Shown in pieces: positions 5,293-47,982 of a stretch of DNA of 64,000 nt (position 1 is the first letter of the stretch; each line of letters begins with the position of its first letter). The stretch lies in the IMG/VR virus record IMGVR_UViG_3300027749_000058, positions 46,936-110,935 of that record; one strand, 5' to 3'. Origin of the DNA: a virus. Below the pieces are notes generated by a model, which had not been told where the DNA came from, ran no database searches, and saw nothing but the letters and a program-made list of their open reading frames with translations. Both the position numbers and the translations under genes were made by a program.

Positions 5293-5303
5293 TATTTATT
5301 GTT

Positions 5304-6032
5304 ATGAAAAGAGATGTTAATTCAATAAAGGTCTTATCACCTGACGACAAAAAATATTTAAAAAAAGTTTCCAATTATCTTAATTCATTGGGAATGCAAG
5401 ATGGTACCATTGAACTTGATTTTAGTGGAGAACGTGTAAGATTATCAGATATAAATTGGAACAGAGAAACCCATTTTACAAATAACTATAGCGCAGAAAT
5501 TCCTGATGGACTATTACCAATTCTTCAAAAGATAATAAATTATATTGATGTAAATGATTTATACCAACAACTTGATGAAGATGTAAACTATGAAAGAATA
5601 GAAATAGATATTGATACAAAAACAAAAGAAATATCTGTTTCTCATTTTTATTCATATTATGATAGGGGTAATGAAAATTCAGTTGAATTTGATTCCCAAG
5701 AAGATTTGGAACAATTTGATGGGTGGGTAAGTGATGAATTTGCAACAATAGATATACCTGAAACAGGAATATTAACATTAAGGTATAATGGTGGTGGTGA
5801 TTCAGGGTATATTGAAAATTCATTTGAAGAAAATGGTGACGCTGTTCCTGCTGAAATTGAAGATTGGTGTTATAGAGCCTTAGAACAAAACTTCGGTGGG
5901 TGGGAAATTAATGAAGGTTCCGATGGGGAATTCATTTTTGATTTTAATAATTCAATGGTTACTTTAAACCATACTATGAATACAGAAGAAAATGCAAGTA
6001 ATACTCTTTATGAAGAAAGTTTTGCTGATTAA
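5304..6032 (+). CDS. DUF6878-like acidic protein
   Basis: YNGGGDSGYIE and GGWEINEGSDGEF motifs. Confidence 0.7.
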   Translation: MKRDVNSIKVLSPDDKKYLKKVSNYLNSLGMQDGTIELDFSGERVRLSDINWNRETHFTNNYSAEIPDGLLPILQKIINYIDVNDLYQQLDEDVNYERIEIDIDTKTKEISVSHFYSYYDRGNENSVEFDSQEDLEQFDGWVSDEFATIDIPETGILTLRYNGGGDSGYIENSFEENGDAVPAEIEDWCYRALEQNFGGWEINEGSDGEFIFDFNNSMVTLNHTMNTEENASNTLYEESFAD

Positions 6033-6091
6033 TTTTATTTAATAAAAAAACAAAGTTTAGAGATTTTCGTATATATTTGTATTTATTAGTA

Positions 6092-6949
6092 ATGACACGA
6101 ATTATATCACTTACTGAATCTGAACTTATGAACGTTGTGAAAACAATTTTGGAACAAGTTAATCTTAATGATTATATTGCAGAAGATTTTGTAGAAGTTT
6201 CTCTTCATTATTTTAGACCATGGATTAAACAAACTCACGGTGAAGAAATTGGTCAATATCCATTATCTTTTTTGATTAAAAAATATTTGGATGAATTTTG
6301 TGAAGACAAACATATTGATTTAGGTAGCACCTATTATTCTAATAATTATAATAAATTGGCCGCGGTTGGTAAATTAATTGTAAAAAAAGGACTTCATGAA
6401 TTACCAAGCATGAAACCTAAAGGATTATTCACAGAAAAATATAAAAAAGGTATTACAGCACTACTTGATCGTTTGGATATTCCTGATTATATGGAACTTA
6501 AAATTACCGAACCAGAACCTTATAATGTTAAAATAAAAACATATATTAAATTTGAACCATTATTAAAATCTGAAAATAAATTATCGTCATCATCGGTAAT
6601 TACAAACAAGTTAAGACAATCTTTTCAAGATTATTTGGGAGTTACCTATGGATTGCCATCTCATGGAGAATTGAATTTATATATTGATGATACACCAGTA
6701 TATCTTGGTCAGGATGAATGGGTTAAAAATGTTTTTAATAAAGAACTTAAGAAAAAAATTAAAGAACTTCCTGAGGCAAAATCAGTTTTACGTTCAATTA
6801 AACTTGATGTGAGTCCATATTTATATGCCACAATAAAATTAGGATTCAATAGCAGTTCAAGATGGAATAGTCAAAAAGAATTTAAAGTAAAAGTTATTGA
6901 CCTTTTGAAAGAAATGGGATACAATACGTCAATATTAAAAGTAGAATGA
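6092..6949 (+). CDS. hypothetical protein, probable head-packaged protein
   Basis: MTRIISLTESELMNVVKTILEQ leader; TATTTAT 5 nt upstream. Confidence 0.65.
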   Translation: MTRIISLTESELMNVVKTILEQVNLNDYIAEDFVEVSLHYFRPWIKQTHGEEIGQYPLSFLIKKYLDEFCEDKHIDLGSTYYSNNYNKLAAVGKLIVKKGLHELPSMKPKGLFTEKYKKGITALLDRLDIPDYMELKITEPEPYNVKIKTYIKFEPLLKSENKLSSSSVITNKLRQSFQDYLGVTYGLPSHGELNLYIDDTPVYLGQDEWVKNVFNKELKKKIKELPEAKSVLRSIKLDVSPYLYATIKLGFNSSSRWNSQKEFKVKVIDLLKEMGYNTSILKVE

Positions 6950-7057
6950 TTAAAACAATTAAATCCCTTTTATAGGGATTTTTTATTTGTATTTATCAAT
7001 AAAACCCTTATCTTTGTGGAAGAAATTACTCACCTATAATCTAAAGGTGGGGAATAC

Positions 7058-7157
7058 GGTTCGGTAGCTCAGCTGGATAGTAGCGACAGCCTTCTTGGTC
7101 TATATTTTAGTATTACCAAGAAGCTGTAGGTCATTGGTTCGAATCCAATCCGGATCA
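7058..7157 (+). tRNA. tRNA-Arg(UCU)-like gene with a 25-nt insertion after the anticodon
   Basis: GGTTCGG/CCGGATC acceptor; ACAGC-CTTCT-[7096-7120]-AA-GCTGT; T-arm ATTGG-TTCGAAT-CCAAT. Confidence 0.75.
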
Positions 7158-45310: not shown

Positions 45311-45513
45311 TATAATCTACTTTGGTATTCTTTTAATGAATTATCATATAATTCTTCTAATTTATCTAAATGATATGTCATTGAAATAATATTTTTTTTA
45401 ACCTCTTCAAATTCTAATGATAATAAATCCATCATTATAACTAAATTATTATTAGGTAAGTTTTTTAAATCTTTTTGATCTTCAATTATTTTATTAAATT
45501 CGTCTTTAGTCAT
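45310..45513 (-). CDS. small coiled-coil protein
   Basis: Likely start MTKDEF at 45513. Confidence 0.55.
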   Translation of the reverse strand: MTKDEFNKIIEDQKDLKNLPNNNLVIMMDLLSLEFEEVKKNIISMTYHLDKLEELYDNSLKEYQSRL

Positions 45514-45514
45514 A

Positions 45515-47596
45515 TTATCTATCTTTACTATATGTAAATGAAACTCCAGTTGCACCAAGTGTTACTGAATCAGTAACACCATTTTCTGTTTTTTCTTTAT
45601 CAGCACCTTTATGGATTGCCTTCATATAAAAATTCATTAAATTTGGAGAACCATCAGGTAATGTTCCTGTTGGAACACCTACTTTTTGTAAAAATTGAAT
45701 TGTATTCACACTTGATCTAGACGGATCTGTGCCAGGTAAAAAATCAGTAAATGGCATTAAAAATAATGGAATTTTTGGTCTTTTAATTGGTAATCCATTA
45801 ATTAAACTTAAAAGAGCCTGAATGTCGTTTAATAAAGATTTACATTCCCTAAAATCTTTAATTATTTGTGTAATTGTTATTGCCAATTGAACTAATCTTA
45901 AAATCATTGTATATCTTTTTGATATTTGATTTTTGGCAATATCTCCAATGATTATTGATAATAAATTAATAATATCTTTTTTTAAGATATCAAAAAGAGT
46001 TTTTAAATAAATTGCACCTATTTCCGATATAACATTAATATTAAATGTTCTAAATTTACTTAAAAAATCAACTCCATTATTAATAACATTATTTGTTTGA
46101 TTACCGATGGTATTGCCAGAAGCAATATTTGTATTACCTGATGTTATTGCTTGATTAATACTATTTGTTGCACTGGTTTGTAAAACAGATAACATTGTGA
46201 ATATAGGTAATAATGTTTTTGGTGTTAATACTCCTGCAGCTACGGCCAAAGGAAGTTTTTTTAATACATTAGTATTAATTGCAACATTCACATTAAAATT
46301 AGCGGGAACAAATAATTTCCAAGAAGGGTTTTGAGAAATACTGTCAATAATATTTTCCATTGCAGTAACTTTTTGTTCTGAAGTTAATCCTGATTGTTGT
46401 AAATTAAAATTACCTAATTGTTGTGTTAATGATTCATAATCTACCGGCAATTTAACATTATTACAATCTTCAAATTCCATTACACCATTTTGTACATTAT
46501 TAATTGTAATATCTATATTTCTTAAATCTGATTCAGTAGGTACAAAAAATTCATCATCAACACCATCTAGTTCAGCAACTTTGGCAACTCCACTCACATC
46601 AATCTGTCTTCTAAAATCAAAACAAAGTCCTAAAATTCTTTGAGCTATTAACGCAAAAGATGATTGATTTCCAATATCCGCAGGACCAAGTCCTGATTTT
46701 GTACTTATAGCACCCGAAAGTAAATTAACAATTTGTAAAGTAATATCCGATGAATCAATCAATTTAATTGTTGAAAAATAATCATTTAAAAAAGGTCCGA
46801 CTTTATTCATAGGATTACCTGACCCATCTTCTCTATCTAATAGTATGACTCTATAATAATCTCCTGAAACACCAAATTCATTTGTTTTTGTATACTGAAT
46901 ATCAAACAAATCTTGATTTGAACTTCCTTTATAAACTTGTCCATATTCCTGTTTAAATGATCTGTTAACATTTGTGGCATCTAATCTTTGATACAATTCT
47001 TTATTCATTGGAAATGGTACATCTCCACCATAAGGCTTGTATTTCGTACTTGTTGATGGTGTAAATGCCTCATAATAAGCCTTTCCAACAGGAGAATCGG
47101 GAGAATTTTTTAAATTACCAAAAAAATCTAAACTTTGGACTGGAATATAAATTCCTTGTTGAACGGGAAGTTGTTGCATTGAACCAATTTGTTCATATTG
47201 GGATTTACTAAATCCTTTAAAAGTTTGTTGTTGAGAACAACCTAACGCCTTTAAAGCATTTTTTGAAAAAATATTTTTTATTTCAGGTTCAATTTTAACC
47301 GAAGCTTCTAAAAATTTTTTTCTTAAATATCTAAAAGATTCTGGTCCTTGTCCATTAGTTTTACCAAATAAATTTAAAAGTTCATCCATAGATGTTGGTG
47401 CATCTCTTTCAAATCTTTTTTGTTTATCTGTAATACTATTTAATCCTTTTGAAATTTTAGACGCAGCTTGGGATGCCGAATCTGCAGCTTTATTTAATAT
47501 ACTTTTTTCTGATTGAGAAGATGTGTTATAATCTTTAATAGCATCCAATTGATTACCTACATCTTTGAATCCTTGAGATATATCTGGTGCTGGCAT
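45515..47596 (-). CDS. large hypothetical (structural?) protein
   Basis: 693-aa ORF in a late operon. Confidence 0.65.
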   Translation of the reverse strand: MPAPDISQGFKDVGNQLDAIKDYNTSSQSEKSILNKAADSASQAASKISKGLNSITDKQKRFERDAPTSMDELLNLFGKTNGQGPESFRYLRKKFLEASVKIEPEIKNIFSKNALKALGCSQQQTFKGFSKSQYEQIGSMQQLPVQQGIYIPVQSLDFFGNLKNSPDSPVGKAYYEAFTPSTSTKYKPYGGDVPFPMNKELYQRLDATNVNRSFKQEYGQVYKGSSNQDLFDIQYTKTNEFGVSGDYYRVILLDREDGSGNPMNKVGPFLNDYFSTIKLIDSSDITLQIVNLLSGAISTKSGLGPADIGNQSSFALIAQRILGLCFDFRRQIDVSGVAKVAELDGVDDEFFVPTESDLRNIDITINNVQNGVMEFEDCNNVKLPVDYESLTQQLGNFNLQQSGLTSEQKVTAMENIIDSISQNPSWKLFVPANFNVNVAINTNVLKKLPLAVAAGVLTPKTLLPIFTMLSVLQTSATNSINQAITSGNTNIASGNTIGNQTNNVINNGVDFLSKFRTFNINVISEIGAIYLKTLFDILKKDIINLLSIIIGDIAKNQISKRYTMILRLVQLAITITQIIKDFRECKSLLNDIQALLSLINGLPIKRPKIPLFLMPFTDFLPGTDPSRSSVNTIQFLQKVGVPTGTLPDGSPNLMNFYMKAIHKGADKEKTENGVTDSVTLGATGVSFTYSKDR

Positions 47597-47597
47597 T

Positions 47598-47963
47598 TTA
47601 TTTTAATTTATAATTTTCTTCTTCTTTAGAAACATCTTTATCAATTAAATTTTGAATTAAATCGTCATCTAAATCTGCAAGTGAAAATGATTCAGTATTT
47701 GTATTTGATTTTTCCCAAATCCCAGATTGGAGTTTGGAAAGACTTAATTTTTTTTCAACACAATCATTAACAATTTTTTGTTGTTTTTCAATTACAGGAC
47801 CAATTGTTGTCATGTCTTCAGGGTCTTTCAACATTGCCAACATTTTATTTTGGATTCTTATTGCAGTATTTCTTTGTTCCACTAATTCATTATAAATTTC
47901 TTGCATTAGTGATAAGATGGACTCTTTACTAAAATTAATTTCTTTTCTTTGTGGTCTAGGCAT
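47598..47963 (-). CDS. hypothetical coiled-coil protein
   Basis: TATTTAT 4 nt before ATG. Confidence 0.65.
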   Translation of the reverse strand: MPRPQRKEINFSKESILSLMQEIYNELVEQRNTAIRIQNKMLAMLKDPEDMTTIGPVIEKQQKIVNDCVEKKLSLSKLQSGIWEKSNTNTESFSLADLDDDLIQNLIDKDVSKEEENYKLK

Positions 47964-47982
47964 ACTGATAAATACTTTTTTA

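Follow-up and report, generated by a model that had tools for sequence, protein, structure and literature searches.

What is a seven-base word, TATTTAT, doing a few nucleotides (nt) ahead of so many start codons in the genome of a giant freshwater phage? The DNA in question is a 64,000-nt window, bases 46936-110935 of one 110,935-bp virus contig (IMG/VR record IMGVR_UViG_3300027749_000058), and a preliminary description of it had proposed the word as a late promoter that produces leaderless mRNAs. Coordinates below are those of the window unless marked as contig, and the gap is the number of nt between the 3' end of TATTTAT and the ATG. On the evidence given here, the box is probably a T4-late-like phage promoter that has no -35 element and that, judged from its sequence and position, would yield mRNAs without leaders or with leaders of 1-2 nt.

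The total number of boxes in the window is unremarkable (64, against 54 ± 8 in shuffled sequences), and it is their placement that stands out. All eleven TATTTAT-N4/5-ATG sites of the preliminary description were recovered, and in the window gene set the box stands at gap 4-5 before nine genes; the maximum for any of the other 127 A/T-only 7-mers is five genes, at whichever adjacent gap pair. Across the contig the box stands at this gap before 16 of 166 called genes. In 2000 shuffles of the final 20 nt of each upstream region the mean was 0.56 and the maximum 4 such genes, so the spacing check against a composition-matched null that had been proposed for the box returns a peak far above that null, and the proposed computational tests all favour the promoter reading. 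Independently of gene calls, 122 copies of the motif in the contig are followed by an ATG at gap 4 in 15 cases and at gap 5 in 5 cases (about 2.3 expected per gap), and 19 of these 20 ATGs open reading frames of at least 50 codons, the exception being the ATG at 3102 (-). This first spacing class also has a few boxes at gaps 3, 6 and 7, and a second peak lies at gaps of 12-18 nt with stragglers to 30 nt. That the pattern is a chance product of AT-rich spacers in a 30% G+C genome would agree with the window count, which falls inside the spread of the shuffles; the tests of position, orientation, strictness and conservation all reject it, and we regard it as extremely improbable.

The sites of the first class are distributed over both strands. 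On the plus strand, the box at 5293-5299 (gap 4, ATG 5304; gene 5304-6032, DUF6878) begins directly behind the stop of the upstream gene, and the box at 6080-6086 (gap 5, ATG 6092; gene 6092-6949) is fused to a host-type box, TATATTTG, at 6072-6079. The fused pair may act as a dual promoter, the host box starting a message with a 6-7-nt leader and the phage box one that is leaderless; the same fused arrangement occurs again at about 10800-10814 of the contig. The box at 11144-11150 (gap 4, ATG 11155) has a hairpin and a T-run upstream and precedes a Dps-like/DUF5856 gene (11155-11616), that at 22836-22842 (gap 5, ATG 22848; gene 22848-23183) overlaps the tail of a terminator at 22803-22836, and that at 23392-23398 (gap 5, ATG 23404) precedes a nucleotidyltransferase-like gene (23404-24156). 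A further box at 17530-17536 (+) lies at gap 7 from the ATG at 17544 (gene 17544-18584) and would give a 1-3-nt leader. On the minus strand the boxes are at 7704-7710 (gap 4, ATG 7699; gene 7292-7699), 13543-13549 (gap 4, ATG 13538; M23 peptidase gene 12324-13538, with a terminator at 13589-13570 just upstream), 16643-16649 (gap 4, ATG 16638; gene 15145-16638), 20130-20136 (gap 5, ATG 20124; gene 19444-20124, with a terminator at 20165-20142 just upstream) and 47968-47974 (gap 4, ATG 47963; a 121-amino-acid (aa) gene, 47598-47963). The box at 3107-3113 (gap 4, ATG 3102) precedes a 32-codon open reading frame (ORF; 3004-3102) that is doubtful as a gene.

All 20 starts at gap 4-5 are ATG, with no GTG or TTG among them, and no upstream ribosome-binding signal accompanies them. 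Leaderless translation requires a 5' AUG. The 4 nt ahead of the ATG are T-rich in the box class and lack the preference for A at -3 that other genes have (A at -3: 0.31 vs 0.56). The starts at 6092, 11155 and 23404 differ from the TTG or GTG starts of the longest ORFs. The ATG at 23404 is supported by the codon before it, which varies among relatives, the ATG at 11155 by where family matches begin, and those at 6092 and 11155 by an N-terminal motif common to both. The box also improves start-codon calls, several longest-ORF starts being wrong.

The box is strict and oriented. It is the top non-tRNA 7-mer of the spacers (13-fold over coding sequence), where TATTTATA is the top 8-mer, and it often reads TATTTAT(A/T) with a purine before it. 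Copies with one mismatch are at background (4 of 1564 at gap 4-5), and a degenerate consensus was therefore rejected. Boxes in co-directional spacers are sense in 38 cases and antisense in 6, and ATAAATA/TATAAATA in sense orientation forms no positional peak ahead of genes. Apart from the purine at -1, all positions upstream of the box carry less than 0.6 bit; the aligned upstream sequences hold no -35/-33 partner, no upstream TTTG accompanies TATTTAT, and sigma-70-type TTGACA/TATAAT promoters are at shuffle level (108 vs 108.8).

Of the 45 gene-proximal boxes, 14 follow a hairpin with a T-run at a distance of no more than 40 nt, a scan of 20 kb found 22 terminators where 7.8 ± 3.2 were expected, and the three terminators named above lead straight into boxes. 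In a 34-nt divergent spacer upstream of the window (contig 36103-36136) the order is ATG (-), 7 nt, box (-), 9 nt, box (+), 4 nt, ATG (+). Because boxes abut terminators or fill this spacer, there is no room there for another promoter. These observations bear on the alternative that the box acts in the RNA, UAUUUAU at -11 to -5 being a site for a translational activator or repressor, a phage-modified ribosome or an endoribonuclease that would trim messages back to a 5' AUG; T4 RegA, for instance, binds at start codons. Fixed distance to the AUG and strict conservation would suit such a site, as would the idea that the ribosomal protein bS21 selects phage messages (PMC9723584). It would leave the genes behind terminators and in divergent spacers with no other promoter, however, and the box is absent from most operon-internal genes, occurs unchanged 12-30 nt from other ATGs with a run of A anchored on the box, and shares its 4-nt gap with host-type boxes that are DNA promoters. 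We therefore hold action in the RNA to be quite doubtful, and a promoter to be the better account of the box.

The placement is also conserved in relatives. Among 50,697 phage records, megablast found no match to 20 kb of the window. The genes on the contig, which CheckV rates 37% complete, include those for a large terminase, a portal of the T4 gp20 type, a major head protein of the gp23 type and a prohead protease of the gp21 type (Peptidase_S77), and its portal is closest to those of Microcystis phage Mel-JY01, Flavobacterium phage immuto, Rhodothermus phage RM378 and cyanomyoviruses (34-39% identity). Related IMG/VR contigs reach 317-321 kb, one of which has terminal repeats and is 100% complete (321 kb, 35% G+C; hereafter G001), and searching IMG/VR with the 23404 protein yielded 80 loci with identities of 61-94%. 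Among orthologues of the 23404 gene, an exact TATTTAT stands in 51 of 51 distinct upstream regions, at gap 5 (37) or gap 4 (14), between flanks that vary. The 22848 family has the box at gap 4-5 in 44 of 52 distinct upstream regions and keeps it despite unrelated upstream context and protein identity down to 33-50%, and for orthologues of the 20124 gene the count of distinct regions is 10 of 13. In the related loci as a whole, 744 distinct upstream regions include 122 with the box at gap 4-5 and 43 with it at gap 13-14. Of the 195 boxes in G001, 48 have gap 4-5, 11 have gap 6 and 32 have gaps of 12-17, all of these ahead of ORFs of at least 60 codons; a reverse-complement control in that genome gave none at gaps 4-6. 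Two lake metatranscriptomes contain 6-7% of the searched words, as contigs only.

Where transcription would start is suggested by a second kind of box. Two host-type -7 boxes had been placed 4 nt before an ATG, and both are present: TATCTTTG at 18593-18600 (+; ATG 18605), with TTTG about 19-20 nt upstream, and TATATTTG at 41694-41701 (-; ATG 41689). Host-type TAHHTTTG boxes peak at gap 4 (6 in the contig and 9 in G001), with a second group at 14-16 nt, and the 18605 orthologues keep TTTG-N19/20-TAyMTTT(G/A)-N4/5-ATG. In Flavobacterium johnsoniae the transcription start site lies 4 or 5 nt after the -7 box TAHHTTTG (T-12 ... G-5) (PMC6847099), a distance that equals the gap in the phage. Two unrelated boxes thus share one preferred gap, which for one of them is the distance from box to start site known from experiment, and this is the strongest indirect argument that transcription would begin on the A of the ATG. 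Position +4 of the gap-4 sites in G001, immediately ahead of the ATG, is occupied by a pyrimidine in 20 of 21 cases, which would fit a Y(-1)R(+1) start-site pattern. The mRNAs from gap-4/5 boxes are accordingly predicted, by comparison with the host, to be leaderless or nearly so. Such mRNAs are uncommon in the host phylum: 87% of leaders in F. johnsoniae are longer than 10 nt (PMC6847099), and only 5.5% of mRNAs in F. psychrophilum are leaderless (PMC9723704).

The phage box resembles the Bacteroidetes sigma-A promoter (-33 TTTG / -7 TAnnTTTG) in the 4-5 nt from box to inferred start, and the phage has genuine host-type boxes too, some of them at the leaderless gap. It differs in that the nearly invariant T-7 and G-5 are changed, the -33 element is missing and the 'nn' positions show no degeneracy. 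The two box classes never swap among orthologues, which argues for two different specificity factors. The gene for an FtsH-like ATP-dependent protease (20176-22191, -; phrog_4871, E 1e-242) is an example of the host-type class: its orthologues keep a host-type promoter (TTTG ... TAcCTTTG) with a 16-nt A-rich leader, and it is presumably early.

The preliminary description had named a gp55-like sigma factor as the reader of the box. The gene at 47983-48750 (-) encodes a divergent sigma-70-family protein of 255 aa, whose sigma signal only a family profile and a model of its fold brought out. The family comprises 1091 representatives at E <= 1e-3, and Pfam Sigma70_r2 is matched by 19 of 49 aligned members. 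Against the PDB, the family profile finds SigA region 2 (E 0.0055) and T4 gp55 (7d7c_F; E 0.061). The AlphaFold (AF2) model, with a predicted local distance difference test score of 88.9, aligns by VIA-align with sigma-2 of RpoS, SigE, SigA and SigW (Z 8.7-9.6, root-mean-square deviation 2.5-3.2 Å over 93-96 residues), and the top 50 rows are all sigma factors; Foldseek E-values for the model are weak (0.02 and above), and the domain-level VIA alignment was needed. The modelled structure thus places the protein in the sigma family, with a sigma domain-2 fold. Its likeness to gp55 is the part of the earlier claim that stands less firmly: an hhalign comparison of the family profile with T4 gp55 gives a weak match (probability 52%, E 1.5e-4, 112 columns), that with the canonical sigma of a relative gives 0.2%, and gp55 is, only weakly, its nearest characterised relative by sequence. 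A phmmer match of the ORF in the PDB (0.058) was judged spurious.

That this protein reads the TATTTAT box is plausible from sequence, and it is the most likely candidate. We favour it because gp55 reads promoters without a -35 element and a canonical sigma has region 4. The rival is that the box is a promoter with a different reader, either a canonical second phage sigma or host sigma-A acting on an aberrant -7 box together with a phage factor. G001 encodes such a second sigma at 291706-292503 (-), with regions 1.2, 2 and 4 at 55-56 bits each, in an operon behind a host-type box that lies 4 nt from the operon's first ATG; it is probably early and could activate later classes. The region matching this gene is missing from the 37%-complete contig. 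With TA at -12/-11, TATTTAT agrees with TAHHTTTG at 5/6 fixed positions apart from -7 and -5 (consensus PMC6847099), and its spacing to the ATG equals that of host boxes. Against this, the 18605 orthologues always carry TAyMTTT(G/A) with an upstream TTTG, whereas those of 22848 and 23404 always carry TATTTAT without one; one-mismatch forms show no enrichment, even where they come closer to TAHHTTTG; a -35/-33 element, which one would expect a sigma with a good region 4 to use, does not accompany TATTTAT; and the divergent sigma resembles gp55, a known reader of -35-less promoters. A different reader thus seems unlikely to us.

On the favoured reading, TATTTAT would by itself, as a -10/-7-like element lacking any -35/-33 partner, define a class of promoters specific to the phage. 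Host RNA polymerase core with a phage-encoded sigma, most likely the divergent gp55-like protein, would open the DNA at the box and start 4-6 nt downstream. Transcription would begin at the ATG, on its A or 1-2 nt upstream, in about 20 contig genes (11 of them in the window), and the same geometry would hold for about 48-59 genes of the complete 321-kb relative. Boxes of the long-gap class (12-18 nt, up to 30 nt; portal, prohead protease and capsid operon) would give short A-rich leaders.

Several points weigh against this account. The start site at the box is deduced from sequence geometry, and since gap 4 and gap 5 both occur, some messages would have 1-nt leaders or the start would flex by 1 nt. 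Read-through past the terminators could place the box inside an mRNA. The genes of the leaderless class are mostly of unknown function, so that the label 'late' would be tentative for them. The candidate sigma belongs to no PHROG or Pfam family when searched as a single sequence, a Sigma70_r2 search of the whole contig giving it a weak score of 13.7 bits (under Pfam's 24-bit cut-off), and tblastn of the ORF against the 50,697 phage records gave no match. Its likeness to gp55 is weak, and the C-terminal domain of the model aligns with sigma-4 regions, which normally hints at a -35-type contact; none is seen. Complete relatives, moreover, carry the second, canonical sigma.

The 121-aa gene at 47598-47963 (-) is always directly downstream of the sigma-like gene and has its own TATTTAT-N4-ATG, in G001 too. 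The protein has no PDB, Pfam or PHROG signal; a gp33-like co-activator was considered and is not claimed, and a transcription co-factor is possible.

Boxes further upstream of virion genes had also been described, and these are present. On the plus strand they lie at 24172-24178 (gap 18, ATG 24197; a member of the short-leader class), 30200-30206 (gap 30, portal gene 30237-32063), 32064-32070 (gap 16, ATG 32087), 33511-33517 (gap 13, gp21-like prohead protease gene 33531-34247, with a second copy at 33497-33503), 34608-34614 (gap 21, gene 34636-36273) and 40541-40547 (gap 14, ATG 40562), and on the minus strand at 43723-43729 (gap 13, ATG 43709; gene 42198-43709). The gene at 34636-36273 precedes the major capsid protein (MCP) gene (36309-38129), which has no box of its own. 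This agrees with published RNA profiles of this phage clade, in which MCP and the gene ahead of it appear to share a transcript and the structural genes do not form a single operon (PMC9723584). In the long-gap class, positions +5 to +7 after the box are A at 18-19 of 24 contig sites, at 70-71 of 75 sites in relatives and at 35-38 of 47 sites in G001. This A-run is anchored on the box and not on the ATG, and its position is that of the A of the ATG in the gap-4/5 class.

Box-driven genes of both classes often encode an N-terminus of the type (I/V)x(L/V)(T/S)E(S/Q)(D/E)L. A K(I/V)(I/V)xLTE(S/Q)(D/E)L-like form is found at 6092 and 11155 of the window and at 6603, 8742, 9457, 10819, 13746, 22261 and 23560 of the contig. 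It resembles the T4 leader for capsid targeting and gp21 cleavage, and together with the gp21-type protease (33531-34247) the resemblance in sequence is suggestive, and only suggestive, of cleavable leaders on internal head proteins. Virion genes and bS21 are reported to be co-expressed (PMC9723584). From the boxes before virion genes, this co-expression and the shared N-terminus we infer that the box class is late.

As the preliminary description had stated, the phage supplies its own bS21. The gene lies at 32765-32959 (-; PF01165, 31.3 bits) among the head genes, and the minus strand directly upstream of it (32960-32975) reads TATTTTT, one mismatch from the box, at gap 5. At gap 5 of their bS21 genes, relatives have TATTTGT, TATTTTA or, in 8/35 distinct upstream regions, the exact TATTTAT, the position of the box being constant and base 6 or 7 varying. 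Its architecture places the phage with the bS21-encoding freshwater Bacteroidetes phages of Chen et al. 2022 (PMC9723584), which likewise have genomes of up to about 320-330 kb, come from lake metagenomes and carry a reverse-strand bS21 amid terminase, portal, protease and capsid genes. That paper proposes that bS21 selects phage transcripts, without naming the transcript feature; promoters, sigma factors, motifs and leaderless messages are not among its subjects (0 occurrences of the words). A functional link between bS21 and leaderless messages is speculation on our part. Ribosomes of E. coli from which bS21 and further proteins are missing can nevertheless translate leaderless mRNA, a finding that favours neither view for Bacteroidetes. 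A combined takeover of transcription and translation in the late programme can be imagined, in which the gp55-like sigma makes dozens of mRNAs that start at or beside the AUG or carry very short A-rich leaders and the phage bS21 retunes Bacteroidetes ribosomes to them; we give it a small chance of being right. If true, it would name the transcript feature that was postulated but left unidentified in Chen et al. 2022.

Two RNA features of the window lie apart from the boxes discussed so far. Rfam finds a 100-nt tRNA at 7058-7157 (45 bits) where ARAGORN gives none, and because one program calls it and the other is silent this is probably a tRNA with an insertion. A strong terminator hairpin at 11637-11673 is followed at once by TATATATTTG, 5 nt ahead of 11689. 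The earlier claim of a host-type box with a 5-nt gap before an RNA at 11689 thus stands for the box, TATATTTG; the RNA is putative, Rfam having no match in the 150 nt up to tRNA-Ile (11842). The region may be the start of a tRNA precursor or another RNA.

How does the box compare with known promoters? In T4 late promoters, gp55, assisted by gp33 and the gp45 clamp, reads TATAAATA at -10. The likeness to a reverse-complemented T4 late box that had been noted holds, TATTTAT(A/T) being the reverse complement of TATAAATA. Common to both are one strict AT-only element of 7-8 bp with no -35 element, a position upstream of virion genes (here in a T4-related myovirus with a portal 37-39% identical to T4-like portals, a gp23-type capsid and a gp21-type protease) and, as far as sequence suggests, a small gp55-like sigma encoded by the phage. 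They differ in that the sense strand of the phage reads TATTTAT(A/T) and not the TATAAATA of T4, and in that about 40% of the phage's gene-proximal boxes abut an ATG, whereas T4 late mRNAs carry leaders with Shine-Dalgarno sites. The sigma-like protein is also larger than gp55 (255 vs 185 aa), and no homologue of gp33 or of the clamp was identified, a search with the gp45 family giving sub-threshold matches only (G000 and G001).

The position a few nt before the ATG is shared with leaderless expression in other bacteria. Middle and late mRNAs of the Thermus phage phiYS40 are reportedly mostly leaderless (Sevostyanova et al. 2007, J Mol Biol 366:420). In leaderless genes of Deinococcus-Thermus and Actinobacteria the -10 element likewise lies a few nt before the ATG and the transcription start site is the AUG (PMC12340547; PMC4007540). 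Those hosts, including that of phiYS40, are rich in leaderless mRNAs, whereas Bacteroidetes are poor in them, and the box of the present phage is phage-specific and not the host -10. Phage late promoters without a -35 element (T4) and -10 boxes that abut an ORF and give leaderless mRNAs are thus already known separately. What is new is the combination of both in very abundant Bacteroidetes giant phages with bS21, together with a T4 box in reverse complement; our literature search for TATTTAT as a phage promoter found nothing relevant.

For these giant phages, which are uncultured and very abundant in fresh water, the boxes give a precise map that can be put to the test: the promoter class predicts about 20 transcription units in the contig and about 100 in a complete genome. 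The map also predicts leaderless mRNAs, a rare kind in the host phylum, for 15-20% of the genes of these phages, in bacteria whose initiation without Shine-Dalgarno pairing is still being worked out. Messages that would begin with a 5' AUG, and a candidate sigma that may produce them, bear on the role of the phage-encoded bS21 and on how T4-like late transcription may have diversified outside Proteobacteria and Cyanobacteria.

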